Positions 1,639-45,272 of a stretch of DNA of 64,000 nucleotides are shown here, one piece after another. Under the pieces are notes generated by a model. The model was not told where the DNA came from. It worked only from the letters and a program-made list of their open reading frames with translations, and ran no database searches. The stretch comes from Oscillospiraceae bacterium (lineage in GTDB: Bacteria; Bacillota; Clostridia; Saccharofermentanales; Saccharofermentanaceae). How positions within the stretch are numbered: the first letter of the stretch is position 1; the number at the start of each line of letters is the position of its first letter. The position numbers and the translations under genes are program-made. The stretch is from assembly GCA_015069205.1 (NCBI GenBank), contig SVIZ01000010.1, positions 15,938 through 79,937 of the forward strand, written 5' to 3'.

Positions 1639-1669
1639 TTAGCTAAATTATTATAGGAGGAAACTTAAA

Positions 1670-2047: not shown

Positions 2048-2078
2048 TTCTTCTAAATACTTTAGAATAGTGACTTAT

Positions 2079-2114
2079 AGAGGCTGTCCAATGCGGGCAG
2101 CCTCTTTCCTTTTT
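2079..2114 (+). terminator. Intrinsic terminator of rplJL
   Basis: AGAGGCTGTCC-aatgc-GGGCAGCCTCT followed by T-rich tract. Confidence 0.85.
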
Positions 2115-2168
2115 ATAACCCAATACTCATCGGTAATTGAATAAAGCCATTTTGATAGCTAATTGCTA

Positions 2169-2197
2169 TTGACTTTAAATCTATGAGTGGATATAAT
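2169..2197 (+). promoter_or_regulatory. Sigma-A promoter of tRNA operon
   Basis: TTGACT-17 nt-TATAAT, 17 nt upstream of the first tRNA. Confidence 0.85.
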
Positions 2198-2214
2198 TTC
2201 AAAGCAACTTTTAT

Positions 2215-2291
2215 GGCGGCGTAGCTCAGTTGGCCAGAGCGTCCGGTTCATACCCGGCAGGTCGTAGGTTCGAATCCCACCGCCGCTACCA
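2215..2291 (+). tRNA. tRNA-Met (CAT), elongator type
   Basis: GGCGGCGTAGCTCAG...CCGG-TTCATAC-CCGG...GTTCGAATC...CCGCCGCTACCA cloverleaf with encoded CCA. Confidence 0.93.
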
Positions 2292-2296
2292 TAAAA

Positions 2297-2371
2297 GGCC
2301 CGTTGGTCAACCGGCTAAGACGTCGCCCTTTCACGGCGGAGTAACGAGTTCAACTCTCGTACGGGTCACCA
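2297..2371 (+). tRNA. tRNA-Glu (TTC)
   Basis: GGCCCGTTGGTCAA...anticodon loop CTTTCAC...GTTCAACT...CGGGTCACCA. Confidence 0.93.
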
Positions 2372-2373
2372 AT

Positions 2374-2447
2374 GGTACCATAGCCAAGTGGTAAGGCATG
2401 GGTCTGCAAAACCCTGATCCCCAGTTCAAATCTGGGTGGTACCTCCA
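2374..2447 (+). tRNA. tRNA-Cys (GCA)
   Basis: GGTACCATAGCCAAGTGG...loop CTGCAAA...GTTCAAAT...GGTACCTCCA. Confidence 0.93.
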
Positions 2448-2483
2448 AAAGCGTCGCTTTTCTTACAAAGCGACGCTTTTTTT
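2448..2483 (+). terminator. Terminator of tRNA operon
   Basis: AAAGCGTCGCTTT-tcttac-AAAGCGACGCTTT plus TTTT. Confidence 0.9.
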
Positions 2484-2553
2484 AGTCAGACAATCAGAGT
2501 AAAATAGTTGCTATTCAATTGAGATTACGGATACCCCGGGAGATGAGGTTTGC

Positions 2554-3507
2554 ATGAGAGAGGATATAAAGGAATTACTTAAAAGATACGATGAGATCGG
2601 CGCACTGATCCTTGAGCAGAAGCTCGACGAGTTCGGTGACAAGCTCGACCAGAAGCCCGACGATGTTGACGATACAACATACGAGGAATATATCCAGCGT
2701 CTTGCAAAAGAAGAGACAGACGAGGCTACGGCAAAGCTCGAGAATGAACCTGATGAGCGCTTAGGTGATAAGTCTATGCGTCAGGTAATGGATGAGCTGA
2801 GCTTCGAAGAGAAGACTGAGGCACTTGAATACAGCGCCCTTAACCTCGACAGAGGCGTTCCCCAGTCCCTTGTATCAAGCATCGCTACAGAGACTGCTGA
2901 CATGGTAAGAGATTACTGCGGAAAGGTCATCGGCGAGTGCGCATGGACAGAAGAAGAGCTTTCTGATGAGAATGTTCTTTTCGAGATGCAGTTCCAGAAG
3001 GCTATCGCATGCTTTGAAGTTCTCATTCAGATGAAGGAACCCTGCTTTATCCAGGCGGTGCTCGACCGTTACTTAAGCTACGGCAAGACAAGAGAATTCG
3101 TTGCTGAGTCCATCGCTGAATATATCGAGGCATTCCCTGAAGTATCTGAGCCTTACCTCATCGGTATCATCGAGAACAACATCGATACAGGCCTTGAAGG
3201 ACCTTGCGAAGATGTTGTCATCATGCTTACCGAGATCGGCAAAAAGCATAAGACTGAAGAGATCTATCAGACATTGAGACATGCGTTCAGATACATGACG
3301 AACAAGATCTATGCGGTAATCTGTCTTGCTGATTACGGCGATGACAGAGCAGTTGCAATGTTCAAGAATTACATCAACCGCAATCAGAAGTCGATCGAGA
3401 GAGACCTTTTCTACGAGATGATGTCCGCTATCCAGAATCTGGGCGGCGATATCTCGGATATCCAGGATCCTTTTGGAGATTTTCAGAAGAAGCAGGACAA
3501 GAAGTAA
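2554..3507 (+). CDS. Acidic alpha-helical hypothetical protein (possible HEAT-like repeats)
   Basis: 317-aa ORF with host-like codon usage and RBS GAGG; helical pattern such as AVICLADYGDDRAVAMF resembles HEAT repeats. Confidence 0.7.
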   Translation: MREDIKELLKRYDEIGALILEQKLDEFGDKLDQKPDDVDDTTYEEYIQRLAKEETDEATAKLENEPDERLGDKSMRQVMDELSFEEKTEALEYSALNLDRGVPQSLVSSIATETADMVRDYCGKVIGECAWTEEELSDENVLFEMQFQKAIACFEVLIQMKEPCFIQAVLDRYLSYGKTREFVAESIAEYIEAFPEVSEPYLIGIIENNIDTGLEGPCEDVVIMLTEIGKKHKTEEIYQTLRHAFRYMTNKIYAVICLADYGDDRAVAMFKNYINRNQKSIERDLFYEMMSAIQNLGGDISDIQDPFGDFQKKQDKK

Positions 3508-32224: not shown

Positions 32225-34858
32225 ATGACAAAGTACGTTTACCTGTTCACCGAAGGCAACGGAAACATGCGCGAACTCCTCGGAGGTAAGGGCGCTAACC
32301 TTGCTGAGATGACAAACATCGGTCTTCCTGTTCCTCAGGGATTCACGATCACCACAGAGGCTTGCACAAAGTACTACGAAGACGGTCGTCAGATCAATGA
32401 CGAGATCATGGGCCAGGTTATGGAGTACATCGTAAAGCTCGAAGAGATCACAGGCAAGAAGTTTGGTGATCTAGAGAACCCGCTCCTCGTTTCCGTAAGA
32501 TCCGGTGCAAGAGCATCAATGCCTGGTATGATGGACACAATCCTCAACCTCGGTCTTAACGAGCAGGTTGTTGACGTTATCGCTACAAAGTCCGGTAACC
32601 CCAGATGGGCTTGGGACTGCTACAGAAGATTCATCCAGATGTATTCCGACGTTGTTATGGAAGTCGGTAAGAAGTATTTCGAAGAGCTCATCGACAAGAT
32701 GAAGGCTGAAAGAGGAGTTAAGCAGGACGTTGAGCTTACAGCTGACGACCTCAAGGAACTCGCTTCACAGTTCAAGGCTGAGTACAAGGCAAAGATCGGT
32801 TCTGATTTCCCTACAGATCCTAAGGAGCAGCTCGTTGGCGCTATCAAGGCCGTATTCAGATCATGGGACAACCCGAGAGCTAACGTTTACAGAAGAGACA
32901 ACGATATCCCTTATTCATGGGGTACAGCAGTTAACGTTCAGTCCATGGCATTCGGTAACATGGGTGACGATTGCGGTACAGGCGTTGCTTTCACAAGAGA
33001 CCCTGCTACAGGTGAGAAGGGACTTTTCGGTGAGTTCCTCACAAACGCACAGGGCGAGGACGTTGTTGCAGGTGTTCGTACTCCTATGAAGATCGCTGAG
33101 ATGGAGCAGAAGTTCCCTGAAGCATTCGCTCAGTTCACAAAGGTTTGCGAGACTCTCGAAAAGCATTACAGAGACATGCAGGACATGGAGTTCACAGTTG
33201 AGCACGGTAAGCTCTACATGCTCCAGACAAGAAACGGTAAGAGAACAGCTCAGGCTGCTATGAAGATCGCTTGCGACCTCGTTGACGAAGGTATGAGAAC
33301 ACCTGAGGAAGCAGTTGCAATGATTGATCCCCGTAACCTCGATACACTCCTTCACCCTCAGTTCGATCCCGCTGCTCTTAAGGCTGCAGAGGCAATCGGC
33401 AAGGGACTCGGTGCTTCTCCGGGAGCTGCTTGCGGTAAGATCGTATTCACAGCTGACGATGCAGTAGCTTGGCACGACAGAGGAGAGAAGGTAGTCCTCG
33501 TAAGACTTGAGACATCTCCTGAAGACATCACAGGTATGAAGGCTGCAGAAGGTATCCTCACAGTACGTGGCGGTATGACATCACACGCTGCAGTTGTTGC
33601 ACGTGGTATGGGTGAGTGCTGCGTTTCCGGTTGCGGCGACATCGCTATGGACGAAGCTAACAAGCAGTTCACACTCGCTGGCAAGACATTCAAGGAAGGT
33701 GACATCATCTCCCTCGACGGTTCTACAGGTAAGATCTACGATGGCGCTATCGCTCAGGTTGACGCTGATCCTAACAATGGTTACTTCGGCCGCATCATGA
33801 AGTGGGCTGACGAGTTCAAGAGACTCGAAGTACGTACAAACGCTGATACACCTAACGATGCTAAGAAGGCTCGTGAGCTCGGAGCTGAAGGTATAGGTCT
33901 CTGCCGTACAGAGCACATGTTCTTCGGTGAAGGCAGAATCGACGCATTCCGTGAGATGATCTGCTCCGATACAGTTGAAGAGCGTGAAGCTGCTCTCGCA
34001 GTTATCCTTCCCATGCAGCAGTCCGACTTCGAAGCTCTCTATGAGGCACTCGAGGGTCATCCCGTTACGATCAGATTCCTTGACCCGCCGCTTCACGAAT
34101 TCGTTCCTACAGAAGAGGCTGACATCAAGGCACTCGCTGATAAGAAGGGTAAGTCTGTAGAAGAGATCAAGACATTGATTTCTTCACTCCACGAGTTCAA
34201 CCCTATGATGGGTCACAGAGGATGCCGTCTCGCAGTTACATATCCTGAGATCGCAAAGATGCAGACAAGAGCAGTTATCCGCGCTGCTATCAACGTTAAC
34301 GCAAAGCATCCCGACTGGAAGGTAACACCTGAGATCATGATCCCGCTCGTATGCGAGATCAAGGAGCTCGTAAACGTTAAGAAGGTAGTCGTAGAGGTTG
34401 CTGACGAAGAGATCAAGGCTGCAGGCGTAGACATGTCCTACAAGGTAGGTACAATGATCGAGATCCCCAGAGCTGCTCTTACAGCTGACGAGATCGCTAA
34501 GGAAGCTGAATTCTTCTGCTTTGGTACAAACGACCTTACACAGATGACATTCGGTTTCTCCAGAGACGACGCAGGCAAGTTCCTCACAGCTTACTATGAG
34601 GCAAAGATCTTCGAGTCCGATCCGTTCGCACGTCTCGACCAGAACGGCGTAGGCAAGCTCATGAAGATGGCTATCGAGTCCGGTAAGGCAGTACGTCCTG
34701 ACCTCCACCTCGGTATCTGCGGCGAGCACGGCGGCGACCCGACATCTGTTGAGTTCTGCGATGAGATCGGTTTGGATTATGTATCCTGCTCACCTTTCCG
34801 TGTACCGATCGCTAGACTTGCTGCTGCACAGGCTGCAATCCGCCATTCGAGGAAATAA
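32225..34858 (+). CDS. ppdK: Pyruvate, phosphate dikinase (last five codons supplied by the integrated element)
   Basis: LLGGKGANL, SVRSGA, GGMTSHAA (phospho-His), GLCRTEHMF, GICGEHGG. Confidence 0.98.
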   Translation: MTKYVYLFTEGNGNMRELLGGKGANLAEMTNIGLPVPQGFTITTEACTKYYEDGRQINDEIMGQVMEYIVKLEEITGKKFGDLENPLLVSVRSGARASMPGMMDTILNLGLNEQVVDVIATKSGNPRWAWDCYRRFIQMYSDVVMEVGKKYFEELIDKMKAERGVKQDVELTADDLKELASQFKAEYKAKIGSDFPTDPKEQLVGAIKAVFRSWDNPRANVYRRDNDIPYSWGTAVNVQSMAFGNMGDDCGTGVAFTRDPATGEKGLFGEFLTNAQGEDVVAGVRTPMKIAEMEQKFPEAFAQFTKVCETLEKHYRDMQDMEFTVEHGKLYMLQTRNGKRTAQAAMKIACDLVDEGMRTPEEAVAMIDPRNLDTLLHPQFDPAALKAAEAIGKGLGASPGAACGKIVFTADDAVAWHDRGEKVVLVRLETSPEDITGMKAAEGILTVRGGMTSHAAVVARGMGECCVSGCGDIAMDEANKQFTLAGKTFKEGDIISLDGSTGKIYDGAIAQVDADPNNGYFGRIMKWADEFKRLEVRTNADTPNDAKKARELGAEGIGLCRTEHMFFGEGRIDAFREMICSDTVEEREAALAVILPMQQSDFEALYEALEGHPVTIRFLDPPLHEFVPTEEADIKALADKKGKSVEEIKTLISSLHEFNPMMGHRGCRLAVTYPEIAKMQTRAVIRAAINVNAKHPDWKVTPEIMIPLVCEIKELVNVKKVVVEVADEEIKAAGVDMSYKVGTMIEIPRAALTADEIAKEAEFFCFGTNDLTQMTFGFSRDDAGKFLTAYYEAKIFESDPFARLDQNGVGKLMKMAIESGKAVRPDLHLGICGEHGGDPTSVEFCDEIGLDYVSCSPFRVPIARLAAAQAAIRHSRK
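34826..34840 (+). repeat. attL core GCACAGGCTGCAATC in the ppdK 3' end
   Basis: Identical 15-mer at 42143-42157; the part from CA onward recurs at 43736. Confidence 0.9.
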
Positions 34859-34988
34859 GCCACGTAAGTCATATTACTTTATGACCTTGTATGTAACTAA
34901 AGAGGACGTTATGCGGTATTTCGCGAACGTTCCGGAGTACACAAAAGTCAATGCGTACAAGGACATGAGAATTGATATTTACATTTAA
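34842..34988 (+). other. Stranded 3' fragment (48 codons) of the element's serine recombinase, int(C)
   Basis: In the recombinase frame the att core reads HRLQS and continues AIRGNKPRKSYYFMTLYVTKEDVMRYFANVPEYTKVNAYKDMRIDIYI*, ending right at the terminator. Confidence 0.75.
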
Positions 34989-35023
34989 AATATGCCCGGA
35001 GCTTAAGTGCTTCGGGCATATTT
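34988..35023 (+). terminator. Terminator copy 1 (serves ppdK when integrated, the recombinase when circular)
   Basis: AAATATGCCCGGAGC-ttaagt-GCTTCGGGCATATTT plus GTTTTTT. Confidence 0.9.
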
Positions 35024-35159
35024 GTTTTTTAATTTATCATTGGGTGTTAATGATATAATTTTTTATTGAAGTGAAAAATTTAAAAGTATTTCTCGAACCA
35101 CCCAAGAAATCATATCCGTTATTCGTCTATTAGATAGATGCGGATAGAAAGGAGACAAA

Positions 35160-36629
35160 ATGATGACCGACAAGGAACTCGAGCAGATCTATAACGAAGC
35201 CTATAAAGCAGTGTACTGGACAGCCTTAGGATTACTTAAGAATGAGGCTGATGCAGAGGACATTGTACAGGACACTTTCGTTACTTTGATCGAATCTTAC
35301 GATTCAATCAAAGATAAGAGCAAGGTTATATCCTGGCTTAAAAAGACTGCTGCCAATAAGTGTCTGGATCGCATAAAACTTGCGAAAACAGACAATATGG
35401 ACGAAGAGTTCTTTGACAGCGTTGAAGCTGTTCCGGAGGATTTCCTGCCTGATTCTATTATTGAGTCGGAAGATGCTCGCAGGATCGTTATGGATATCAT
35501 CAACAACAAATTATCTGATGATATTAGAAGAACACTTATCCTGTTCTACTTTGACGATATGAGCACAAAAGAGATCGCGGAAGCGCTCGGAATTCCACAG
35601 GGTACAGTCTCGTGGCGTCTGAATTTTGCCAAGAAAACAATCAAGAAGGAGGTCGAGAAGTATGAAGAAGAAAACAAGACGAAGTTGTTTAGCATGGCAG
35701 CACCATTCTTAAGCAAGCTATTTATAAAAGAAGCAGAGCAGGTACCATTCAAGGCCATACCTGCAAAACTGATATCTTTGTCCGCATCTGCAGAGGCTTC
35801 AAAAGCCGGATCAAACATTGCTATAAAGGCAGTAAAGAAAGGGACAGATATTATGAAAACAAAAATCTTGATTGGCAGCGTTGCTGCTGTGGTTGCAGTT
35901 GGTGCAACAGTTGGAATAATCCTCGGAGTAATGAACAAAAAGCCGGAGGAAAAGCCTGTTATCTCAGATACAACATCGATCTCTGAGGTGAATGAAGTTA
36001 CTGAGGTAAATAATGAAAGTGTTACGGAAGCGACTTCTGGCGGTAGTTCTGAGACATCGCCAGCGGGAGCCAGGTGGATTGATAGTAACCGCTGTATCGT
36101 TAACGGTCACGAGATAGTGATTGGTCAGAGCACCGTGCAGGAACTGGTTGACAGTTGTTATATTGTTGTTCATGATGCAAAGGCTGATCCCGGAGAACCT
36201 CAGCTTCAAAGCCAGGATTATACTTTGGATACTGTGGTCTCACAGGCTGACAGGAATGTTTTGAGGTATTTAGGAATTTGGGCTTTCCCGGATGAAGCAT
36301 CGGCTGCTTCGAAAGAAAATGCGGTTCTCTTCAGCTTCCGTCTTCCTGAGGATGGTGAAAAGCCCATAAGAGACTGCATTATCGGTTCGTTTTATGTCGA
36401 TCTCAGGACGGAAGTTATTGAGATCTGGGGAGACAATCTGCAGTTAGATTTTCCGTTTACAATGACTCTAAATGATCTTGTGGAAAACTCAGGAGAAGGA
36501 ACTCCTACTGGAATGCCAAACGCTTACGCTTATTATACAGATCCTTTGGCGGGCACATGGTGGACATTCGATTTCGATGATAACGATGAGAAGTTAGAGA
36601 CTGTTTCTTTTTCAACTCCTTTTTTCTGA
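35160..36629 (+). CDS. ECF sigma-70 factor fused to a TM helix and an extracytoplasmic domain
   Basis: Region 2 DAEDIVQDTF..SWLKKTAANKCLD; region 4 MSTKEIAEALGIPQGTVSWRL; TM ILIGSVAAVVAVGATVGIILGVM. Confidence 0.88.
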   Translation: MMTDKELEQIYNEAYKAVYWTALGLLKNEADAEDIVQDTFVTLIESYDSIKDKSKVISWLKKTAANKCLDRIKLAKTDNMDEEFFDSVEAVPEDFLPDSIIESEDARRIVMDIINNKLSDDIRRTLILFYFDDMSTKEIAEALGIPQGTVSWRLNFAKKTIKKEVEKYEEENKTKLFSMAAPFLSKLFIKEAEQVPFKAIPAKLISLSASAEASKAGSNIAIKAVKKGTDIMKTKILIGSVAAVVAVGATVGIILGVMNKKPEEKPVISDTTSISEVNEVTEVNNESVTEATSGGSSETSPAGARWIDSNRCIVNGHEIVIGQSTVQELVDSCYIVVHDAKADPGEPQLQSQDYTLDTVVSQADRNVLRYLGIWAFPDEASAASKENAVLFSFRLPEDGEKPIRDCIIGSFYVDLRTEVIEIWGDNLQLDFPFTMTLNDLVENSGEGTPTGMPNAYAYYTDPLAGTWWTFDFDDNDEKLETVSFSTPFF

Positions 36630-36657
36630 ACTTAATCAAGTCAAAATAACGCAAAAA

Positions 36658-36682
36658 CATCCCGAGAATATATCTCGGGATG
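36658..36682 (+). terminator. Hairpin after the ECF fusion gene
   Basis: CATCCCGAGA-atata-TCTCGGGATG; lacks a strong U-tract. Confidence 0.55.
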
Positions 36683-36709
36683 CCAATAATTAATAAGAGG
36701 TAGAAATTT

Positions 36710-37474
36710 ATGAAAAGAATCACGACACTTATTTTAGCTGGATCTATGGTGCTTGCCTTCTGCGCGTGCGCGCCTAAGGATCAATCAGGAACGGAAGATA
36801 AGAATTCTGCTGAACAAACAATAGAAAGCATTACTGAAGCGATTTCAGGAGAAGGCGCGAAGAACAGTTCCGAAGCAGATTCCGAATTTGGATCTGCAGG
36901 CAGAAAATATGTCAACTTCAATGACCTGAAGGTGAAAATCAACGGAAAAGTAATCACTATGAATCAGTCCACTGTACAAGATCTTGTTGATATAGGCTGC
37001 TATGTAAATCCTCACCTGTTGGATAGAAGTGTTGCTTACGGCAATAAAGTCGGCGACAGCGTAGAAGCAGGACAGCTGGTGTATATGACTGTTTTTGATA
37101 TGGATGATGAAGAAAATAGGCCTTCCGGACAGAATGCAAATCGTCCAATAGTTTTCATTGCAAAAGCAGAGACAGCAGGCACTATTTCTGAGTGTGTAAT
37201 ATGTGGTGTCCATTTTAGAACCGAGGATATAATTGCATGGGAAGATGAAATAGAGTTTGAGTTCCCTCTCGACCTCACGTCTGAAGAATTAGTAAAAGAC
37301 TCAGGAGAAGCTTCTTCAGTTGAAACTGGTACAACCGAATCATGGTACCGGTATGAATCTGAGGATAGTTCAATGGTATTCCATTTTAGGAATGGGTCCT
37401 TAATTAGTATTATGGCTGAGTTTGATGAAGGCTCGATCATTGACCTGCAAAAGGGTTTGATCAGCGCCACGTAA
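36710..37474 (+). CDS. Lipoprotein sharing a domain with the ECF fusion C-terminus
   Basis: Signal peptide ending LAFCA-C; INGKVITMNQSTVQDLVD versus VNGHEIVIGQSTVQELVD in 35160-36629. Confidence 0.8.
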   Translation: MKRITTLILAGSMVLAFCACAPKDQSGTEDKNSAEQTIESITEAISGEGAKNSSEADSEFGSAGRKYVNFNDLKVKINGKVITMNQSTVQDLVDIGCYVNPHLLDRSVAYGNKVGDSVEAGQLVYMTVFDMDDEENRPSGQNANRPIVFIAKAETAGTISECVICGVHFRTEDIIAWEDEIEFEFPLDLTSEELVKDSGEASSVETGTTESWYRYESEDSSMVFHFRNGSLISIMAEFDEGSIIDLQKGLISAT

Positions 37475-37539
37475 CGAAATTCGTACAGACGAGTTATGGA
37501 CACTCATCCGGCTCACATCAACACAATAAAGGTGCAAGT

Positions 37540-37571
37540 AATAAGCGGGATCTTAATTGACCCCGCTTATT
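37540..37571. terminator. Terminator hairpin after the cargo genes
   Basis: AATAAGCGGG...CCCGCTTATT. Confidence 0.75.
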
Positions 37572-38289
37572 CTATAAATGATACTTAAACTATAATTGCA
37601 ATTCGTTCCGAATTCATTATGAATTGGTGAACCATGGCAGGGTTCAAAAGTGAACCGTGCATTACATTGAACTTATAACACTTGAATATATTAAGTTGAA
37701 AAGGTAGTAGTTATCTATAGTAGAGTACTATAACTAAATATAAGTACATGCTGTTTTCAGAAGCAGAAATATGATTCTCATATATAGTATGAATACTTAT
37801 CAGTGATTGTCTCACTTCCGGTTATGAAATTAGTTGTAGGTTATGCGATAACCTTTTTGTTTTTCAACCCAACATAATAATGTTTTCCCAGAATATTGAC
37901 ATTGGCTGTTGCATATTGATGTGCCAGAAACAATCTAAACAAATTAATGGGACATATTTAACCAAAAACAAACATAAGTTCTTGACAAAGGCGTCTTAGC
38001 GTGATATATCTGTGTTCACGTACATCGCTTAACTGTATCTTGTATTCAGAAGATGACAGTAATAAAGTGACCATTTTGCGGACGGATATATAATGTTCAG
38101 GCATTTTGATGCCAGGATCCATGACAAGCAAAAGGCACCAACAAGTTTGATACTTCATTCTTCCTTTGAGGACAACTATGTCTGGAAGATAAGTTTCGAC
38201 GTGTTGGTGTTTTTTTATTTTCTGTCTTTTCAATTCAAGGTGACACAATTTTACGCTACGAACTAAAAGAAAAGTCGTTCATTCTTTTG

Positions 38290-38355
38290 GTTTAAGGCAA
38301 GCATCGCGTCCGTGTACACAAGGACGCAACTTATCGGGCAGAAGCCCGAACCCAC
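38290..38355. other. Probable oriT
   Basis: Minus strand reads GATGCTTGCC (38296-38305), resembling the pC221-type MOBP nick region; adjacent inverted repeats GCGTCC/GGACGC and TCGGGC/GCCCGA directly upstream of mobC. Confidence 0.65.
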
Positions 38356-38380
38356 TTTTATTTACAGGAGGTGATTCACA

Positions 38381-38707
38381 ATGACAAAAGAGAAAAACAA
38401 GACCAAAAATCTGCATATTCGTTTGTCAGAAAATGACTTTGAACTTATTAGGAAAAAGGCTTTGTCATCCTATTTGACTGTTACTGATTATGTGACTAAG
38501 TGTTGTCTTGAGAAACAGATATTCGTCATTGAAGGTATCGATGAAGTGATACGGCAGCAGAAATATGTTGGCAACAACCTCAATCAGCTCACAAGAATTG
38601 CAAACAGCGGGGCGGTAAATGTAGTCGGTCTCGATGAAGTTAAAAACGAATATGCAAAGGTTACAGGGAAATTGAATGAGATCCTTGAACGTGGAAGGTG
38701 GCGCTGA
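38381..38707 (+). CDS. mobC: Relaxosome accessory protein MobC
   Basis: RHH-like NLHIRLSENDFELI and GNNLNQL motif; stop overlaps the relaxase start (TGATG). Confidence 0.92.
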   Translation: MTKEKNKTKNLHIRLSENDFELIRKKALSSYLTVTDYVTKCCLEKQIFVIEGIDEVIRQQKYVGNNLNQLTRIANSGAVNVVGLDEVKNEYAKVTGKLNEILERGRWR

Positions 38708-40071
38708 TGGCAGTGATAAGTATTCTTTCCAACGGAAGTACACAAGGTCATAAACCGCTCAAGAACGTCCTCGACTACTGCATGCAGGAAGCAAAAACAA
38801 TGAATGACGGACATAAACTCGTGTCAGGGATCGACTGTTTGCCTGAAACGGCATATTCGGACATGATGGCGACAAAGAAGAGATTTGGCAAAACAGGCGG
38901 TCGCGAATACTATCACATCCTTCAGTCGTTTTCTCCAGATGAGCTTCTTACGCCGGAAGAGGCCCATAGGATTGCCTGTGAGTATGCTCAGGAACAATTT
39001 AAGGGTTATGAACTGATCGTTGCTACACACGTCGACAGAGACCATATACACTCGCACATTGTGCTTAACAGTGTCAGCCACATTGATGGAAAGAAATACC
39101 ATTCGGACAAAAATAACATCCCAAGACTACGTGAAGCATCAGATGCACTCTGTATGAAGCATGGTCTTACAGTGATTGGAAAGACAGAAAACGGTCTCCG
39201 GAAGATGGGAACAAGAGAATACAGAGCGGCATCAAAGGGTGAAAGCTGGAAGATCAACCTCATGGCTACGATCAATCTAGCGATGACAAAAGCCAAAACA
39301 AGGAATGATTTCATCAGATTTATGGAGTCGCGCGGATATAAAGTGACGTGGTCTGATACCAGGAAATACATAACTTACACTATCCCGGACGGCAAAAAAT
39401 GCAGAGATAACAAACTACATCTCAAGAAATATACAAAGGAGATGATGGATTATGAATTCGAAATACGACGAAGAATTAACGAGCTTCATCGGCAACGCAG
39501 AGAAGAATCTTATACAGGCAGCAGAACCGACGAAGTGCGTGATGATCTCGGAAGAGAACTGGAAGAGCATCGTCAAGACGTTGGAAGCGCAGTTAAAAGC
39601 GATGGACAGGCTTGGAATGTTACTGAACAGAACACTCACAGCAGAGCAGACGTGCAGTTTTATAAATCAAATGACGGATATTCATATCAAACACGAACAG
39701 TATTGGATGGAAGAACTGACAGGCGAAGCAAAGACTCTGAAGACGGAATTGGAAGAACAATCGAAGAAAATGATGACAGATCTGACCTCACAGGCTGGGA
39801 AAATGAGCGAGCAGTCTGCTACGGATCTGGCCAAGATCAAGATGGAAATGCAAGTTTATTCGGACAGACTGTATCACCGTCTGCTTCTTCCATGCCTTCT
39901 TACGACATTGCTCTCAGCGGTGCTTACCTTATGGCTGGTGCTTCAACTTTGACCGAATCACCGCAAGATAAAGACCGTGACGAGAATGAAATTGCACGTG
40001 AAAAGGCATCCCACGATGACAAAAAGAAGAAACAACGGCATGACGGACATGGTCCGGTAATGACAATGTAA
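38707..40071 (+). CDS. MOBP-type relaxase (MobA/VirD2 family)
   Basis: LDYC (catalytic Tyr), YHILQSFSP, ATHVDRDHIHSHIVLNSV. Confidence 0.92.
   Translation: MAVISILSNGSTQGHKPLKNVLDYCMQEAKTMNDGHKLVSGIDCLPETAYSDMMATKKRFGKTGGREYYHILQSFSPDELLTPEEAHRIACEYAQEQFKGYELIVATHVDRDHIHSHIVLNSVSHIDGKKYHSDKNNIPRLREASDALCMKHGLTVIGKTENGLRKMGTREYRAASKGESWKINLMATINLAMTKAKTRNDFIRFMESRGYKVTWSDTRKYITYTIPDGKKCRDNKLHLKKYTKEMMDYEFEIRRRINELHRQRREESYTGSRTDEVRDDLGRELEEHRQDVGSAVKSDGQAWNVTEQNTHSRADVQFYKSNDGYSYQTRTVLDGRTDRRSKDSEDGIGRTIEENDDRSDLTGWENERAVCYGSGQDQDGNASLFGQTVSPSASSMPSYDIALSGAYLMAGASTLTESPQDKDRDENEIAREKASHDDKKKKQRHDGHGPVMTM
39452..39952 (+). CDS. Overprinted ORF inside the relaxase gene, MobB-like coiled coil with C-terminal TM helix
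   Basis: 166-aa alternative-frame ORF, RBS AAGGAG at 39436-39441, hydrophobic C-terminus LLLPCLLTTLLSAVLTLWLVLQL. Confidence 0.6.
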   Translation: MNSKYDEELTSFIGNAEKNLIQAAEPTKCVMISEENWKSIVKTLEAQLKAMDRLGMLLNRTLTAEQTCSFINQMTDIHIKHEQYWMEELTGEAKTLKTELEEQSKKMMTDLTSQAGKMSEQSATDLAKIKMEMQVYSDRLYHRLLLPCLLTTLLSAVLTLWLVLQL

Positions 40072-40090
40072 ATCATAGGAGGAATTTTAT

Positions 40091-40597
40091 ATGGATAGAA
40101 TTAAGGCAATTAATATTAAAAATATTCTTGTTGAAGAAACTGGCGGGGGTATATATGTTTCTGACCGCGTCTTCGAACGAGAAAAAATGGAAGATTTAGA
40201 CTATATTTCAGAGCTCATTTCAGAGATGATGCGGTTAAAAAATATAAACAACCAAACTACAGATGCATTGCTCATCAATGAGATAAGAATAGTTTTTCCG
40301 GACAGGTTTGTAGAGGCAGCAAACATTATCATGGCTGTTTCATTATTCAAATCGTTCAAAGAACAGGGGTTGCTTACAGAAGATGAATACCTTGAGATTG
40401 TGTCCGACAATGAAAAACGCTGGCGAAATCTCTTATACGGTGATAGTATGACTACTAATAAAGTAGTTTTAAACGGGGGTATATATGAGAAGAAAAGTCG
40501 CAATTTATGCCCGTGTTTCGACCGAACACGAAGAACAGATATCGGCTTTGGAGAATCAGGTTCAGTATTATTCAGAACTTTTGGAGCGTCATCCTGA
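40091..40597 (+). CDS. Hypothetical protein with SHOCT-like segment, overlapping the recombinase start
   Basis: RBS AGGAGG; FKSFKEQGLLTEDEYLEI resembles small proteins found before large serine recombinases. Confidence 0.6.
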   Translation: MDRIKAINIKNILVEETGGGIYVSDRVFEREKMEDLDYISELISEMMRLKNINNQTTDALLINEIRIVFPDRFVEAANIIMAVSLFKSFKEQGLLTEDEYLEIVSDNEKRWRNLLYGDSMTTNKVVLNGGIYEKKSRNLCPCFDRTRRTDIGFGESGSVLFRTFGASS

Positions 40598-42179
40598 GTT
40601 TGAACTCTATGATCGATACATCGATGAGGGCATTACAGGAACATCTGTAAACAAGAGACCAAGCTTCCTCAGAATGATGGAAGACGCAAAGAAGGGGTGT
40701 TTCGATTTGATTATTACGCGCGAGGTCTCGCGATTTGCTCGTAATACTGTCGATACTCTTCTTGAAACACGTAAGCTTAAAGCTATGGGTGTAGAGGTAT
40801 GGTTTACAGAAGATAACATATGGACGTTTGACGATACCGATGGAGAGATAAAGCTTACACTTATGGCAACACTTGCACAGAATGAAAGCAAGAAAATCTC
40901 CACACGTGTTAAAGCCGGTCAGATGATCTCTTTTAAGAATGGCGTTCCGTATGGAAATGGTAATATTCTTGGATACGATAAGCTTCCCAATCATGGCGGA
41001 TATGTGATTAATAAAGAACAAGCAGAGACGGTTAGATTGATTTATGATCTGTATCTTTCTGGAAAAGGCTTGCGCGCAATACAGTTTGAGCTCGAACAAA
41101 GAGGCAGAAAGACGGCGAAAGGATTAAGTCATTGGGATTGTTCTAACATCGGAAGAATATTGAAGAATCCGTTTTATTGCGGAATTCTTGAGTATCGCAA
41201 GCAATATGTACCGGATTATCTTGAACAAAAGAAGATAAATAATCATGGTGCAGTAGAACGAATACGGGTTAAAGGAACCCATGAACCTATAGTTTCCGAA
41301 GTCGAATTTGCCATGGTGCAGGCAAGAATAGAGAATAATGTTCAACCCGCGAACAACAAATCCAAAATCACAGGACGAAAGGAACATGCTGATGTCTGGG
41401 GAGAAAAACTTGTTTGTTATTGTGGAAGAAAGCTGAATCGTGTTAAGTATCATACGACGAAAGACGGAGATATAAAGTATGCATATCAATGTGCATCTCA
41501 AAAAGACACAGGTTCTATAAAAACAAGAATGAATAAAGGTCTGCCTTTGGATGGTGTATGCCGATCTCAGTTTGTTCAGGCATGGAAACTGGAGGCTCAA
41601 GCATCAGTAATATTTGCTCAATTCTTTAACAATAAACAAGCGATTCTGCGTGTGGCAAATGCTATGTTTGAGTCAAACGGGATAGTTGAAGGAAAGAAAA
41701 ACAGCGAAGAAAAAGAACTCAAAAGACTCAATCAGCAAATTGATAAAGCACAAAGTAAGATTGATAAGCTGCTTGATCTTCGATTGTCAGAAGAGATTGA
41801 TCGCGACGACTATGCCAGAAAAAGAGAAGAATTGGATAAACTCATTGCTCAAGCACAAGAGAAGATAGCACAAATATCTAAGTATCAGGCAATGGAAGAC
41901 AGTATCGAAGCTCGTGTAAATGCGATGAAAGAAGTCATTGAAGGTCAAAAAGAATATGACTTTACACGAATACCGGAAGATATAATTAGAGCATTTGTTG
42001 ATAAAATAGTCGTGTACGAGGATTACTTGGAGTGGCACCTGATCTTTGATGAAACAACACAAATGAGACTGTCCTGCACAGGACAAAAAAGGAACCATGA
42101 AGTAGTGTTCTTACTGGATAATCCCCTAAATAGCGGGCCTCAGCACAGGCTGCAATCAAGCACAAGGCTAAATAAATAA
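40485..42179 (+). CDS. Large serine recombinase (integrase), C-terminus altered by attR
   Basis: VAIYARVSTE (catalytic Ser), VSRFARNTVD, LAQNESKKISTRV, LKNPFYCG, zinc ribbon (CYC..C..C), coiled coil. Confidence 0.95.
   Translation: MRRKVAIYARVSTEHEEQISALENQVQYYSELLERHPEFELYDRYIDEGITGTSVNKRPSFLRMMEDAKKGCFDLIITREVSRFARNTVDTLLETRKLKAMGVEVWFTEDNIWTFDDTDGEIKLTLMATLAQNESKKISTRVKAGQMISFKNGVPYGNGNILGYDKLPNHGGYVINKEQAETVRLIYDLYLSGKGLRAIQFELEQRGRKTAKGLSHWDCSNIGRILKNPFYCGILEYRKQYVPDYLEQKKINNHGAVERIRVKGTHEPIVSEVEFAMVQARIENNVQPANNKSKITGRKEHADVWGEKLVCYCGRKLNRVKYHTTKDGDIKYAYQCASQKDTGSIKTRMNKGLPLDGVCRSQFVQAWKLEAQASVIFAQFFNNKQAILRVANAMFESNGIVEGKKNSEEKELKRLNQQIDKAQSKIDKLLDLRLSEEIDRDDYARKREELDKLIAQAQEKIAQISKYQAMEDSIEARVNAMKEVIEGQKEYDFTRIPEDIIRAFVDKIVVYEDYLEWHLIFDETTQMRLSCTGQKRNHEVVFLLDNPLNSGPQHRLQSSTRLNK
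42143..42175 (+). repeat. attR core plus displaced ppdK 3' end (AQAAIKHKAK*)
   Basis: GCA CAG GCT GCA ATC AAG CAC AAG GCT AAA TAA continues the ppdK frame. Confidence 0.88.
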
Positions 42180-42197
42180 TTAACATTAACTTATAAG

Positions 42198-42232
42198 ATA
42201 TGCCCGGAGCGATATGCTTCGGGCATATTTTT
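42198..42232 (+). terminator. Terminator copy 2
   Basis: ATATGCCCGGAGC-gatat-GCTTCGGGCATAT plus TTTT. Confidence 0.9.
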
Positions 42233-42350
42233 ACTTTTGACAAAACACGCCAAAAGCAATTTGTGTTTTTGACAAAAACGCTTATTGTTGCATTGTGTTT
42301 TTGACAGCGACATGATATTCTTCAGATATAATACTGACAGGAGAGCATTT

Positions 42351-43682
42351 ATGGAGCTGAAAAGAAAGTGCGAAAAAGATATTAGATCCTGGTACAGAAA
42401 CAGCACAAAGGCTTTGCTTGTCAAAGGCGCACGACAGGTTGGCAAGACGCATCTGATCAGACGTGTTCTCAAAGAAGAGGGTTGTGATGTTTTCGAAGTG
42501 AATCTTATCGAGACTCCGGAGGCTGTCAGCATTCTTCAGCAAGCCGGGACCGTAGATGAACTGATGATTGGTCTGTCTGCCTTAGGTGGTCAGAGACTCC
42601 AAAAGGGAAAGACTGTAATCTTTATTGACGAGATTCAGAAATATAAGGAAATGGTTACCAAAATCAAATTCCTTGTTGATGACGGAAGTTTCAGATATGT
42701 TCTAAGTGGATCGCTGCTAGGAGTTGAACTGACGAATATCGAATCTGCACCCGTCGGATATCTGTCGACGATTGAGATGTTTCCGCTTGATTTTGAGGAG
42801 TTCCTGCAGATTACTGACATCAGTGACGAGGTGATAGATAGCCTTAGAAGATCGTTTGAGACGCGAAGCGCGGTGTTGGATGCAGTGAATGATAAGATGT
42901 TGAATCTGTTCAGACGTTATCTTGTTGTCGGTGGAATGCCGGAAGCAGTGAGTGTTTTCGCAGATACAAAGAACGTGAAAGACGTTATTACAACACATCA
43001 AGATATAAAGGCTTTATATAAACTGGATTTTACTCAATATGAATCAGATGATAAAAAGCTGATGATTTCAAGTGCGTATGGCCTGATACCGTCGGAACTT
43101 CTGAAACAGAACAGACGATTCATTGTTACGGATCTAAAAAACGGACTTCACTTCGATCGTGTTGAGAGCACCTTCCTATGGCTCTATAATGCCGGAGTTG
43201 CGATACCTGCATTTAACAGCACTGAACCGAGAATACCGCTAAAACTGAATGAAAAACGAAGTCTGTTTAAACTATATCTGTCTGACGTTGGTATGCTTAC
43301 TTCTGAATATGGAATGAGTGCGAAACGCATGCTGATAAGTAATGACAGCAGCCTTAATGCCGGCGGCATATATGAGAATGCGGTTACCCAACAACTGAAA
43401 GCATCCGGTTTTGAAATCTATTACTACAATTCCAACCGACTTGGCGAACTTGACTTTGTGATCGATTATAGCGGCAGTTCCACACCTATCGAAGTGAAGA
43501 GTGGCAAAGACTATGATAAGCACTCTGCCTTGAACAATTGTCTTCAGAATACTGAATATGAGATGAAGGAAGGTTTTGTATTAGCTGATTGTAATATACA
43601 TGCAAAAGGAAAAGTAACATATCTTCCCATTTATATGATTATGTTCATCAAGAATGATTCAGAAGATTACTATTTGAATTGA
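42351..43682 (+). CDS. AAA+ ATPase (AAA_14 plus DUF4143)
   Basis: Walker A GARQVGKT, Walker B FIDEIQ, SGSLLG, GGMPE, KLYLSDVG, ELDFV..IEVKSG; start set to ATG 42351. Confidence 0.9.
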   Translation: MELKRKCEKDIRSWYRNSTKALLVKGARQVGKTHLIRRVLKEEGCDVFEVNLIETPEAVSILQQAGTVDELMIGLSALGGQRLQKGKTVIFIDEIQKYKEMVTKIKFLVDDGSFRYVLSGSLLGVELTNIESAPVGYLSTIEMFPLDFEEFLQITDISDEVIDSLRRSFETRSAVLDAVNDKMLNLFRRYLVVGGMPEAVSVFADTKNVKDVITTHQDIKALYKLDFTQYESDDKKLMISSAYGLIPSELLKQNRRFIVTDLKNGLHFDRVESTFLWLYNAGVAIPAFNSTEPRIPLKLNEKRSLFKLYLSDVGMLTSEYGMSAKRMLISNDSSLNAGGIYENAVTQQLKASGFEIYYYNSNRLGELDFVIDYSGSSTPIEVKSGKDYDKHSALNNCLQNTEYEMKEGFVLADCNIHAKGKVTYLPIYMIMFIKNDSEDYYLN

Positions 43683-43735
43683 AGCATAGACATGACGGAA
43701 AATTTTTTAGGCTAGCCTCGATGTTTACGCCACAT

Positions 43736-43762
43736 CAGGCTGCAATCAAGCACAAGGGCTGA
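43736..43762 (+). repeat. Third copy of the ppdK 3' end / att-like site (QAAIKHKG*)
   Basis: CAGGCTGCAATCAAGCACAAGG (22 bp) identical to 42146-42167; identity begins exactly at the CA dinucleotide. Confidence 0.85.
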
Positions 43763-44072
43763 TACAGGTCATATAACTTGAATTAATTAAGGCGTTGTCT
43801 CAAAAAGCCACAAATTTTCCGGAGTCTTTGACCTCATATCGCAGAAAAATCACAGTAACCGTCATAGCATTGTGAATGCAAATAAGCTTCGGATGATTAA
43901 TCCGGAGCTTTCATTTTGCCTTTAAATTCAAAGAATTCTCAAGTAAGCCGACACATGTGTTCGGATATGTTGCTTATGCAACATTTAGGGCTGACATTAA
44001 CCATTGGATTGCGTTGTTGGAACGGTAATAATGAACTCATCAAACAGAAGATTTAAACAGGAGGACATAACC

Positions 44073-44429
44073 ATGAAGACTTGCAATATGAATATTGAGA
44101 AGAAGGCCATTAAGGAATTAAGCCCTGATGATCTGAATGAAGTTGCCGGAGGTCTTTCCGGTGAAGTAGTACTTGACAGTATATATCTTAATAAGCTGGG
44201 TTTACTCTATGATACTGTCTCAGACATTTATACTCTTTTTCACTGGGGAGAAGCCACTTCATTTGTCGAAGACGGATGGGCAAAGGTCGGAATTACTTGC
44301 GTAACCAGCTATATGAACTGTAACTGTTATTACTATCAAGGTGAAATGATCAGCAGGAACAATGCTTTGAAAATCGCGAGAAATACCTGTATTAAAGGAC
44401 CGCAGATTGGGCCCATGGTTAACAATTGA
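44073..44429 (+). CDS. Double-glycine leader peptide precursor (bacteriocin-like)
   Basis: RBS AGGAGG; leader ends ELSPDDLNEVAGG; about 91-aa predicted mature part. Confidence 0.7.
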   Translation: MKTCNMNIEKKAIKELSPDDLNEVAGGLSGEVVLDSIYLNKLGLLYDTVSDIYTLFHWGEATSFVEDGWAKVGITCVTSYMNCNCYYYQGEMISRNNALKIARNTCIKGPQIGPMVNN

Positions 44430-44463
44430 GTAAGGCTTAATTATACAAGTATTAAGTTATAAG

Positions 44464-44498
44464 ATATGCCCGGAGCGATTTGCTTCGGGCATATTTGT
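44464..44498 (+). terminator. Terminator copy 3
   Basis: ATATGCCCGGAGC-gattt-GCTTCGGGCATAT plus TTGTTTTT; the downstream ~55 bp resemble those after copy 1. Confidence 0.9.
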
Positions 44499-44570
44499 TT
44501 TTCAATTTGTCATTGGGTGTGAATGCTATAATTTATTAAAGTGAATATCGAATCAGGAAAGCAAATCGGA

Positions 44571-45272
44571 ATGATATTAATATTTGACCTTTTCCAAACG
44601 CTTGTTGAAGTCGTCAGGATGGATTTTAATCTCGGATTAAAGCCATTTTGGAATGAGCATTATAAAGATAAGTGTTCTTTTGATGAGATCAGGGCTTATG
44701 GTGAAGAGTTATTCCTTCATATGCAGGGCCTTCATAAACAGGGATTTGAATTTCCTTTCGTAAAAGATGAGCTGCCGTTGTATGCTGAGAGATTCGGCGG
44801 CGATGTTATTAGCATGAGCATAGAAGAAGAGGCAGCGTTTTTAAGCAGGTGCAACGAAGAGAGAGTCTATGACGGACTTCTTGAGATGCTGGATCTTTTC
44901 GCGAAAAAAGAAATACCGATGTATGTACTATCTAACAGCGGTTTTAGAGCAGATGCGCTGCGGCTGATGCTCGATTCTCACGGGATAGGCAAATACTTTA
45001 AAAAGGTATGGTCAAGTGCTGATTTTGGAAAGGTCAAACCATCAGCTGATTTCTTTAATATGGCCATTGGCGAGGTGCTTAGCCAATATCATGATGCAAC
45101 CAGAGAAGATATATTGTTTATCGGCGATACATATGAAACGGATATTGCAGGAGCTCACAATGCCAGCCTCAGGACGGTGTGGATCAACCGGAATGATAAA
45201 CCTGATGACAACGGATTTGCTACATATCAGATCAAGGATATAACCGAACTGAGCAAATCGCATATTGTATAA
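44571..45272 (+). CDS. HAD-superfamily hydrolase
   Basis: IFDLFQTL, VLSN, KPSADFF, FIGDTYETDIAGA. Confidence 0.88.
   Translation: MILIFDLFQTLVEVVRMDFNLGLKPFWNEHYKDKCSFDEIRAYGEELFLHMQGLHKQGFEFPFVKDELPLYAERFGGDVISMSIEEEAAFLSRCNEERVYDGLLEMLDLFAKKEIPMYVLSNSGFRADALRLMLDSHGIGKYFKKVWSSADFGKVKPSADFFNMAIGEVLSQYHDATREDILFIGDTYETDIAGAHNASLRTVWINRNDKPDDNGFATYQIKDITELSKSHIV

Follow-up and report, generated by a model that had tools for sequence, protein, structure and literature searches.

The window, by which we mean the whole 64,000-nucleotide stretch of DNA that was analysed, carries the pyruvate, phosphate dikinase gene ppdK followed by a series of segments, each of which begins or ends at a copy of the last ppdK codons. 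The features of the locus are as follows.

32225–34858, + strand: ppdK (pyruvate, phosphate dikinase), TIGR01828 equivalog (1392 bits, residues 3–872).
34826–34840, + strand: junction 1, attL of the integrative mobilizable element (IME), with 15-bp identity GCACAGGCTGCAATC and inferred crossover dinucleotide CA at 34829–34830.
34831–42145, + strand: predicted IME, 7,317 bp from crossover to crossover, with a precise uninterrupted site in G211 and the same element in G005.
34881–34988, + strand: 35-codon frame at the IME left end, placed by in-frame joining as the 3′ end of the recombinase gene in the circular element.
34988–35065, + strand: terminator hairpin A1 and promoter-like stretch D2, inside the IME before the cargo and among the strongest terminator-like sites of the region.
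35160–37474, + strand: IME cargo, an ECF-type sigma factor with a long C-terminal extension (35160–36629; Pfam Sigma70_r2/r4) and a 254-aa protein (36710–37474).
38381–40071, + strand: mobilization module, a NikA/MobC-like protein (38381–38707) and a MobA/VirD2-type relaxase (38698–40071) (PF21983 1.2e-17, PF05713 1.8e-8, PF03432 1e-39).
40485–42179, + strand: large serine recombinase (LSR), 564 aa as integrated (PF00239 2.2e-27, PF07508 5.7e-24).
42143–42175, + strand: junction 2, attR of the IME with tail 2 (AQAAIKHKAK*), the PpdK end before the IME arrived.
42195–42231, + strand: terminator hairpin A2, the ppdK terminator of the IME-free state (terminator scan).
42237–43682, + strand: AAA_14/DUF4143 ATPase gene unit, an upstream region with three GTGTTTTTGACA repeats and the gene (42351–43682); PADLOC PDC-S01.
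43717–43735, + strand: P2, fossil element-side half-site CTCGATGTTTACGCCACAT, homologous to CTCGATGTTAACGGCAGTA in G204:C26 and G206:C26.
43736–43794, + strand: junction 3, tail 3 (43736–43762) and 32 bp of old downstream sequence, the oldest preserved ppdK end.
44073–44429, + strand: 118-aa bacteriocin-like peptide with double-glycine leader ELSPDDLNEVAGG (sequence reading), the content of the third, innermost segment.
44432–44538, + strand: vestigial junction 4, made up of tail end AAGGCTTAAT, hairpin A3 (44462–44496) and promoter-like D2′; it precedes a HAD hydrolase gene (44571–45272).

The live ppdK ORF encodes 877 aa and ends in tail 1 (34826–34858; gca cag gct gca atc cgc cat tcg agg aaa taa, AQAAI-RHSRK*), whose last five codons (RHSRK) and stop come from the inserted element. 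Direct reading gives AQAAI-KHKAK* for tail 2 at 42143–42175 and QAAI-KHKG* for tail 3 at 43736–43762, the latter directly preceded by cat, not gca. The initial annotation had described three ppdK tails after the same core, and they are present at 34826, 42143 and 43736. In a repeat search, the copies at 34826 and 42143 share 15 identical bases (family D4) and those at 42146–42167 and 43736–43757 share 22, beginning at CA as had been claimed. Allowing up to 3 mismatches, we found two occurrences of an 18-mer from the 22-bp repeat in the window, versus 0.05 expected from shuffles. Each insertion at ppdK gives the enzyme new last few amino acids.

The outermost segment is bounded to the base. Joining 34781–34840 to 42158–42232 yields the uninterrupted sequence of the sister species G211 at 132 of 135 bases. 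G005 has the same IME at the same site, 96% identical over 4.6 kb, with different cargo, the sigma-factor/254-aa block being swapped for other genes; in G224 the same IME arm is joined to yet another tail. The remaining ORFs of 34841–42142, which encode the sigma factor, the 254-aa protein and a 168-aa protein, are without transfer-related domains. With its own recombinase, a relaxase and MobC but no mating-pore genes, att repeats and a precise empty site, the segment is predicted to be an IME; no oriT was located in it. The recombinase gene at 40485–42179 is the only LSR gene in the genome. Its product matched the Resolvase and Recombinase domains, and a Cys-rich stretch (CYCGRK...YAYQC) and a long charged helix-like region were read by eye, with no match to a zinc-ribbon model; a length of 564–606 aa fits large serine recombinases. 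An attP junction was found neither in the genome assembly nor in the viral contigs scanned for the IME right junction. The 19 or more near-identical metagenome contigs all have the same arrangement and include no excision circle or empty site of the same strain, and searching for exact matches to the HAD hydrolase and GlyRS proteins led almost exclusively to clonal copies of it.

The last 11 codons of the LSR gene lie past the crossover, within host-derived DNA, and joining 40485–42145 to 34829 onward produces one 606-aa frame ending ...MRIDIYI. The same joining gives 606 aa in G005 and 608 aa in L059, the L058 frame is contiguous at 604 aa, and the peptide of the 35-codon frame is conserved in 9 elements. 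The attachment site lies inside the recombinase gene, so that integration alters the C-terminus of the enzyme (606 aa versus 564 aa). In the rebuilt IME attP, the best dyad symmetry falls exactly on CA (16/28 positions, next best 10; binomial p ~3e-4). In a 69%-identical relative the best dyad centre is the same CA. CA also comes out best in L059 and, among five recombinase-less inserts, in four of the rebuilt attP sites, which bears out the crossover point predicted in the initial annotation.

Identity at junctions 1–3 starts sharply at this CA, irrespective of the left-hand sequence. This argues against a history in which the repeated tails and hairpins arose through homologous recombination or duplication of ppdK terminator copies, with blocks imported from related species and no site-specific integration. 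Such a history would fit the long near-identical direct repeats that include the terminator in G204 (at least 62 bp) and G010 (~110 bp) and, without the tail, in L052 (~60 bp), the 96% likeness of hairpins A2 and A3, and the lack of synteny downstream of ppdK across the genus. We nevertheless consider it very unlikely, given that the left sides of the junctions are recombinase gene ends (intact in the IME, a pseudogene in G204/G206), that the empty site is precise to the base and that the rebuilt attP dyad is centred on CA. In nearly all of ~20 genus relatives, ppdK homology stops at 34839/34840 (at 34833 in G016) and the sequence beyond differs; several of these relatives have two or three tails. 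The description of the ppdK 3′ end as a stacking site is thereby confirmed.

Behind the IME, the segment 42176–43735 contains one intact gene (42351–43682, 443 aa), with AAA_14 and DUF4143 domains end to end. The ORF list and domain search showed no recombinase or transfer genes there, so the segment does hold an AAA+/DUF4143 gene alone, as first described, and is non-autonomous. The protein matches PADLOC PDC-S01 profile PDLC04792 (E 1.7e-179; residues 3–439 on positions 2–439 of 452) and is a candidate single-gene defence system. Profile searches identified three DUF4143 genes in the genome (tblastn gave one AAA paralogue). At the right end of the segment, P2 has its origin in a recombinase gene: the homologous CTCGATGTTAACGGCAGTA in G204:C26 and G206:C26 ends a 70–116-aa C-terminal LSR remnant, a pseudogene 53–58% identical to the IME recombinase. 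When P2 is joined to the tail-2 arm, the best dyad is at CA (13/28), and equivalent inserts of 12–22 kb occur in G210, G204, G211, G215 and G206. The 1.6-kb segment is what deletions have left of a second LSR element, whose recombinase was where the AAA gene now sits; the 19 bp of P2 are all that remains of that recombinase end. Like a CIME, the segment is free of recombination and transfer genes and derives by deletion from a larger element, as the P2 homology and the 12–22-kb equivalents indicate; its predicted att ends are the core with ~19 bp of element-side half-site at 43717–43757 and, on the left, the IME attR. The initial annotation's older non-autonomous cassette therefore stands as to age and lack of autonomy, but not as a simple cassette, since P2 is homologous to an LSR pseudogene end and the AAA unit is found independently elsewhere.

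Homology with IME-free relatives stops at 42236, and the AAA unit recurs in unrelated contexts (L118, L121) at 78–86% identity with the same left (42223/42237) and right (43680/43682) limits. An alternative reading is that the AAA_14/DUF4143 gene is itself the mobile agent, homing to the recombinase end of elements at the ppdK site and displacing the recombinase gene. Its unit and repeat-bearing upstream region keep the same limits in three unrelated contexts. In G211, a second AAA_14/DUF4143 gene that is only 31% identical stands ~50 bp ahead of the equivalent junction; others directly follow ppdK in G007 and an LSR gene in Eubacterium oxidoreducens. We regard homing by this gene as extremely improbable: neither terminal repeats nor target duplications were seen where the unit begins and ends, the family is a defence candidate of the kind that gathers at any integration hot spot, and the enrichment near ppdK (4 of ~170 genus copies within 15 kb downstream versus ~1 expected) is weak at p ~0.02, with ppdK positions incompletely known.

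The same AAA-P2-CA unit, at 97–98% identity, is joined to three different tails (window/G210, L116 and L122), and the remnant could thus still have recombined at CA after loss of its recombinase. One reading of this is that the 1.6-kb segment is a live cis-mobilizable cassette, with the IME recombinase joining 43736 to 34826 or 42143 so that the segment exits alone or with the IME. The right half at 43736 is identical to the IME attR for 20 bp past the crossover, the 19-bp P2 was kept though the rest of the old recombinase gene is gone, the unit precedes three different tails, and the two recombinase lineages share their chromosomal site and are rather closely related (L058-type 71% identical overall, remnant 53–58%); cis-mobilization of recombinase-less remnants is documented in other families (PMC5704250). 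The half-sites speak against it. P2 matches only 3/16 of the positions shared by the two IME half-sites, a comparison that is a weak predictor of LSR specificity, and 5/28 positions of P1 overall; the three bases before CA differ (cat versus gca), and the 43736 site has two core substitutions in G210, as expected for a fossil. Neither a cassette-free nor a cassette-only state of the lineage is seen in any of the 19 or more near-identical contigs. Excision by the neighbouring integrase, as the initial annotation proposed, found no support and is unlikely, because the half-site appears unrelated to the IME's own and the genome has a single LSR gene; a live cassette is correspondingly unlikely, and the remnant has probably lost the ability to move. 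A different proposal is that a ~19-bp half-site beside a single defence-candidate gene is not accidental and that minimal units are traded in trans between ppdK stacks by resident IME recombinases, which we hold to be quite unlikely. If it were true, the AAA-P2-CA unit on its three tails would be a trace of exchange, and the ppdK end would act much like an integron, as a platform on which serine recombinases exchange single-gene cassettes.

Comparison of the DNA downstream of ppdK across relatives showed that cassette presence varies, and that neither the AAA gene nor the 43736 copy is fixed. Three occupancy states were observed. State 0 is represented by G152, in which ppdK runs uninterrupted into tail 3 (98% over 51 bp). 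State 1 is found in L055, L049 and L053, which are G005-like with no IME, and in G210; L055 and G210 have tail 2, an insert and then tail 3. The G210 insert measures 12.4 kb and has the final 45 codons of the AAA gene, P2 and tail 3 at its end. G000 and G005 are in state 2, with the insert and the IME in front of it. These states bear out the sequence of insertions implied by the initial annotation, with the IME as the later arrival. In G211, G210, G215 and G204, ppdK leads directly into tail 2 and its hairpin, 91–96% identical to 42143–42236. The 59 bp of junction 3 are 96.6% identical in G005, where they lie behind a different 4.3-kb insert, and are also present in G210 and L055. We considered tail 2 with its hairpin as the native end and tail 3 as a stray fragment, and GTCATATAACTT after tail 3 as the left end of another IME. 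Both were rejected, because in G152 ppdK runs directly into tail 3, which comes with this sequence and a terminator; this marks tail 3 as an old end of native type. The one variant, L042, differs upstream of 43869 in an unrelated 9.3-kb block that this genome lacks and that makes sense as part of the larger island in G206. The end of the L042 Fe-ADH gene resembles tail 3, a likeness that we put down to coincidence.

We count at least four boundaries in the stack instead of three. Homology with the strain variant L042 begins at 43869, and in the innermost segment the 118-aa peptide had no match in Pfam, NCBIfam or PADLOC. Past it, AAGGCTTAAT at 44432–44441 is a fourth, vestigial tail piece before the third hairpin copy, and homology begins at 44429 with L050 and at 44419 with G204. 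In the repeat search, 42185–42230 is 96% identical to 44451–44496 (hairpins A2 and A3) and 35008–35065 is 91% identical to 44481–44538. An A2-type hairpin also follows ppdK in G021, L050 and G211. A genome-wide repeat was rejected as the source of the hairpins: the copies at 34988–35023 (A1), 42195–42231 and 44462–44496 are the only three in the whole genome, all within the ppdK locus. The tail-2 regions of relatives align also to 44432–44507, and the 85–96% likeness of tail 2 and hairpin A2 to the junction 4 region could reflect gene conversion or homologous exchange instead of a separate integration. Homologous recombination, very unlikely for the stack as a whole, could account for junction 4 and the hairpin duplications.

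Taken together, these results make it quite probable that the locus arose through stepwise accretion of LSR elements at the ppdK end, with an IME and a CIME-like remnant in tandem. The ppdK 3′ end is a landing site at which a complete mobilizable element stands in front of collapsed older remnants. The codons for the last conserved PpdK residues (Ala-Gln-Ala-Ala-Ile) would serve as the chromosomal attachment site of a family of LSR elements, with strand exchange at the CA of gcaCAgg. Each incoming element would bring its own copy of the core, then a few replacement codons and a stop, so that PpdK stays intact and the previous tail is pushed downstream. Three rounds can be told apart in this genome, and we infer the following order of decay. 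The original ppdK end would have been tail 3 (43736). An element of a second LSR lineage would then have inserted, bringing tail 2 and a ppdK-type terminator, and later lost its recombinase and most of its content. Left in its place would be the terminator, the final 19 bp from the recombinase end and a defence-candidate AAA_14/DUF4143 gene that was acquired independently. The latest arrival would be the intact 7.3-kb mobilizable element, which inserted at the site proximal to ppdK and carried tail 1 with it. A boundary that is older still and has been almost erased lies at ~44432, before the HAD gene.

Integration, decay to a CIME and arrival of a new IME at the gene-proximal att site form a three-step scheme that has been reviewed, and ICESt1/CIME at the fda 3′ end in Streptococcus thermophilus and tandems of streptococcal IMEs are examples of IME-CIME accretion in Firmicutes (PMC5704250). 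Common to ICESt1/CIME and the ppdK stack are insertion into the 3′ end of a housekeeping gene with restoration of the gene end, decay of the resident to an att-ended remnant without integration and transfer genes, and a new element at the gene-proximal site that creates a tandem, with a full series of states among relatives. The ppdK locus differs in its target and in its use of large serine recombinases instead of tyrosine integrases. It also differs in that the remnant's half-site comes from another recombinase lineage than its neighbour's, which makes cis-mobilization of the remnant doubtful. In the literature searched, no publication links ppdK, serine recombinases and integrative elements.

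The stack is a tandem accretion that resembles SCC arrays. SCC elements (SCCmec, pseudo-SCC and composite islands) occupy the 3′ end of rlmH/orfX in staphylococci and use large serine recombinases. As at ppdK, insertion is in the last codons of a conserved gene that stays intact, and there are arrays of repeated gene ends in which recombinase-less members lie beside recombinase-bearing ones. CcrB (134.5 bits) and CcrC (132.2 bits) were the best-scoring named NCBIfam models for the LSR, well below the cut-off of 900 for a Ccr equivalog. Unlike SCC, the ppdK IME targets ppdK (TIGR01828) and not rlmH, has its own relaxase and MobC, and has its attachment site within the recombinase gene. An attP inside the recombinase's own gene is known from tyrosine recombinases, the Mx8 intP/intX and SSV1-type integrases. 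In both cases integration cuts the recombinase gene and gives it a different C-terminus, but the IME enzyme is a serine recombinase and only its last 53 codons are exchanged.

The ppdK stack is a well documented, yet ordinary, example of a known process, and current ideas on island formation are unchanged by it. It is a clean, base-resolved case of how one att site in an essential, highly expressed gene builds a variable island, with all intermediate states kept in sister species. Defence-candidate and bacteriocin-like genes gather at this site, and the attB/attP pair with its inferred CA crossover is a potential, testable recombination tool. For rumen and gut Clostridia, the analysis names ppdK as a gene targeted by one family of mobilizable elements with serine recombinases.

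The 3′ end of ppdK occurs three times in the window, and the copies divide the region as follows.

32225–34858, ppdK (the live gene), 877 aa, pyruvate-phosphate dikinase equivalog (1392 bits), ending AQAAI-RHSRK-stop (tail 1)
40485–42179, large serine recombinase (LSR), 564 aa, its 3′ end crossing the second ppdK-end copy
42143–42175, second ppdK end (tail 2), reading AQAAI-KHKAK-stop
42351–43682, AAA_14/DUF4143 ATPase gene (AAA gene), 443 aa
43736–43762, third ppdK end (tail 3), reading QAAI-KHKG-stop
44073–44429, 118-aa bacteriocin-like peptide with a double-glycine leader (MKTCNMNIEKKAIKELSPDDLNEVAGG) and a Cys-rich mature part

Direct reading of the sequence confirmed the three tails described in the initial annotation. 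Copies one and two have 15 bases in common (GCACAGGCTGCAATC), and copies two and three share 22, starting at the CA of gcaCAgg. The repeat is not due to chance, since an 18-mer of it, with up to 3 mismatches allowed, was found twice in the window against an expectation of 0.05. The segment between copies two and three holds, as also annotated, a single intact gene (the ATPase) and no recombinase. The segment between copies one and two is a complete integrative mobilizable element (IME), encoding an ECF-type sigma factor, a 254-aa protein, a NikA/MobC protein, a MobA/VirD2 relaxase, a 168-aa protein and the LSR.

Homology to ppdK ends at position 34839 or 34840 in nearly all of about 20 same-genus species (34833 in genome G016). 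In the closest species (G211, G210, G215 and G204; ppdK 95–96.5% identical), ppdK reads directly into tail 2 and a terminator hairpin. Window positions 34781–34840 joined to 42158–42232 agree with the actual G211 sequence in 132 of 135 bases; given this match and the uninterrupted reading into tail 2 in the closest species, the IME insertion is precise, at 7,317 bp. The same IME lies at the same place in G005, whose ppdK is only 93% identical, with different cargo and a 96% identical mobilization and recombinase half; with the left end included, identity is 93–96%. The cargoes are unrelated, 35059–37593 (sigma factor and 254-aa protein) being replaced in G005 by three other ORFs (locus L023, reverse complement, 795–3464), and the swap point lies directly 3′ of a carried terminator-promoter module. 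In G224 the right arm of the IME is joined to another, different tail, and other Clostridia have elements at ppdK whose recombinases are 69–71% identical (loci L058 and L059).

The initial annotation predicted CA as the crossover and took the start of the third-copy match as support. Support independent of that match came from attP, which we rebuilt from the element sides of both IME junctions and scanned for dyad symmetry over 21 candidate centres. The best centre was CA, with 16 of 28 complementary positions against 10 for the runner-up (binomial probability ∼3e-4, for one centre), and CA was also the top centre in G005 and in the 69%-identical element L059. These results support CA at 34829–34830, 42146–42147 and 43736–43737 as the putative exchanged dinucleotide.

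A 35-codon frame at the left end of the IME (34881–34988) continues the recombinase reading frame across the crossover. The att site lies inside the recombinase gene, and translation of the circular form would give 606 aa with a conserved 35-aa peptide (...KVNAYKDMRIDIYI) at the C-terminus. In the integrated form the last 11 of the 564 residues are host-encoded. The same split is seen in G005 (606 aa) and L059 (608 aa), and in L058 the long frame (604 aa) is contiguous. In this sheep-duodenum MAG the recombinase, 71% identical, crosses the core without a break and goes on to the conserved C-terminal peptide (3366–3480), and the next 10 kb of the 47 kb beyond it hold no further recombinase or relaxase; L058 represents either a tandem or an element in an attP-like configuration. 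With the att site within the recombinase gene, each stack junction also alters the C-terminus of the recombinase 5′ of it, and because the frame spans the crossover, frame fragments follow the ppdK tails in G019 and L059. The 606-aa and 564-aa forms may allow switching from integration to excision or back.

Relatives reveal the order of events, as three states are all found among them: no insert, one insert, and one insert plus the IME. In G152, sister of G005 (ppdK 99.3% identical), ppdK continues without a break into tail 3, behind which come the same GATACAG-TCATATAACTTGAATTAA and then a terminator. Three metagenome contigs of G005 type (L049, L053 and L055) have ppdK with tail 2 and lack the IME, and in L055 tail 3 lies 1.38 kb beyond tail 2. 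In G005 itself the IME is followed by tail 2, then by an insert of 4.3 kb that lacks a recombinase, and finally by tail 3. In this genome's own lineage, ppdK of G210 ends in tail 2 with the hairpin behind it; after 12.4 kb come the final 45 codons of the AAA gene, the same 19 bases preceding CA, and tail 3. The ppdK-adjacent element is always the youngest. Neither the AAA gene nor the 43736 copy is fixed among element-free relatives, which leaves standing the earlier proposal that the ppdK end is a stacking site.

That proposal described the 1.6-kb segment 42146–43735 as an older integrase-less cassette. It is older and integrase-less, but "cassette" is too tidy: by sequence comparison, the segment is what remains of an older serine-recombinase element after its collapse, plus an independently acquired gene, for four reasons. 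First, the last 19 bases before CA (P2, CTCGATGTTTACGCCACAT, 43717–43735) are homologous to CTCGATGTTAACGGCAGTA of G204 and G206, the extreme end of a 70–116-aa C-terminal remnant of a second recombinase lineage; this remnant shares 53–58% identity with the corresponding part of the IME recombinase, and its closest relative is the intact L058 type. Second, the relatives' equivalent insert measures 12 to 22 kb and contains genes that this genome lacks, namely a second ATP synthase operon, an MMPL transporter and a TetR regulator. Third, homology with IME-free relatives ends at 42236, right behind the hairpin. Fourth, the AAA gene and its upstream region form a separate unit (42223/42237 to 43680/43682), found at 78–86% identity in two unrelated contexts (L118 and L121). 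What survives of the older element is the left arm, made up of tail 2 and terminator, and the final 19 bases of the right arm.

In the inserts behind ppdK of G210, G204, G211 and G206 (L143, G210:C6; L146, G204:C26; L151, G211:C1; L117, G206:C26), the divergent second ATP synthase operon is 68–72% identical to the genome's own and is accompanied by a 746-aa protein besides the transporter and regulator; a serine-recombinase element, now decayed, therefore has an accessory ATPase operon as cargo. Three G204 contigs (C26, C8 and C25; L146, L147 and L148) start or stop exactly within the repeated tail-2/hairpin sequence, and since the assembly breaks at att repeats, the 12.4-kb insert has flanking direct repeats of at least 62 bp.

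Over its full length the AAA gene matches PDC-S01, a PADLOC candidate (E 1.7e-179). Three direct repeats of GTGTTTTTGACA(A) precede it (42233–42310) and are kept in the L118 and L121 copies; they probably form an operator or promoter array and move together with the gene. In at least 4 of 100 species a DUF4143 gene is found within 15 kb 3′ of ppdK (G007:C15:58712, G211:C1:28735, G010:C28:119914 and window 42351), against about 1 expected from ∼170 copies (p ∼0.02); the G211 gene, 31% identical, is ∼50 bp before the equivalent junction. The gene is intact in the window and decaying in two other lineages: a metagenome copy (L122, 9029–9183) is broken by a duplicated TetR upstream region and has lost 43352–43544, and L117 lacks 43196–43354.

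Could the neighbouring IME recombinase mobilize the remnant in cis, as the initial annotation suggested? The right half of the 43736 site matches the IME attR without a mismatch over 20 bases, and P2 plus the tail-2 arm still has its best dyad at CA (13/28). The left half is different: the two IME attP half-sites agree at 16 of 28 positions, and P2 matches just 3 of those 16 and the IME P arm at 5/28, while the three bases preceding CA are unlike the IME's. The genome (98.6% complete) has a single LSR gene, the G210 copy of the site already carries two core substitutions, and no contig of this lineage shows the IME without the remnant. Also favoring mobility, the same AAA-P2-CA unit (97–98%) is joined to three different tails (window/G210, L116 and L122), which can mean independent integrations or recombination after recombinase loss; equally, it can mean that older elements further right were lost. 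The evidence, although not decisive, speaks against excision by the neighbouring integrase, and we consider cis-mobilization unlikely.

A further boundary lies at 44419–44432, where homology starts with G204 and with L050, an IME-free relative (ppdK 96.7% identical) whose HAD gene is 5.4 kb downstream. A vestigial tail (AAGGCTTAAT) at this boundary is followed by a third hairpin, a promoter-like stretch and the HAD gene. Strain variant L042 is 98.4% identical from 43869 onward and different upstream. The innermost segment contains only the 118-aa peptide, which has no family match and no adjoining transporter or immunity gene. The three hairpins are the region's three strongest terminator-like sites and have no other copy in the genome. 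Synteny with the genus's other species is absent for at least 15 kb 3′ of ppdK, and the region as a whole behaves like an island assembled at the ppdK site.

In Firmicutes, tandem accretion proceeds by integration, decay to a cis-mobilizable remnant, and arrival of a further element at the gene-proximal site (PMC5704250). The order seen at ppdK follows these three steps, and the locus operates in the same way as tandem accretion of IMEs and cis-mobilizable elements (CIMEs). The stack also resembles SCC arrays at rlmH, but the element is not a member of the SCC family: its target is ppdK, and it reaches 134 and 132 bits with the Ccr models, whose cut-off is 900. No papers linking ppdK, serine recombinases and integrative elements turned up in a full-text search. 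IME-CIME-type accretion at ppdK is well supported as a new instance of a known process, and the main value of the ppdK stack is its complete series of states together with defined att sites.
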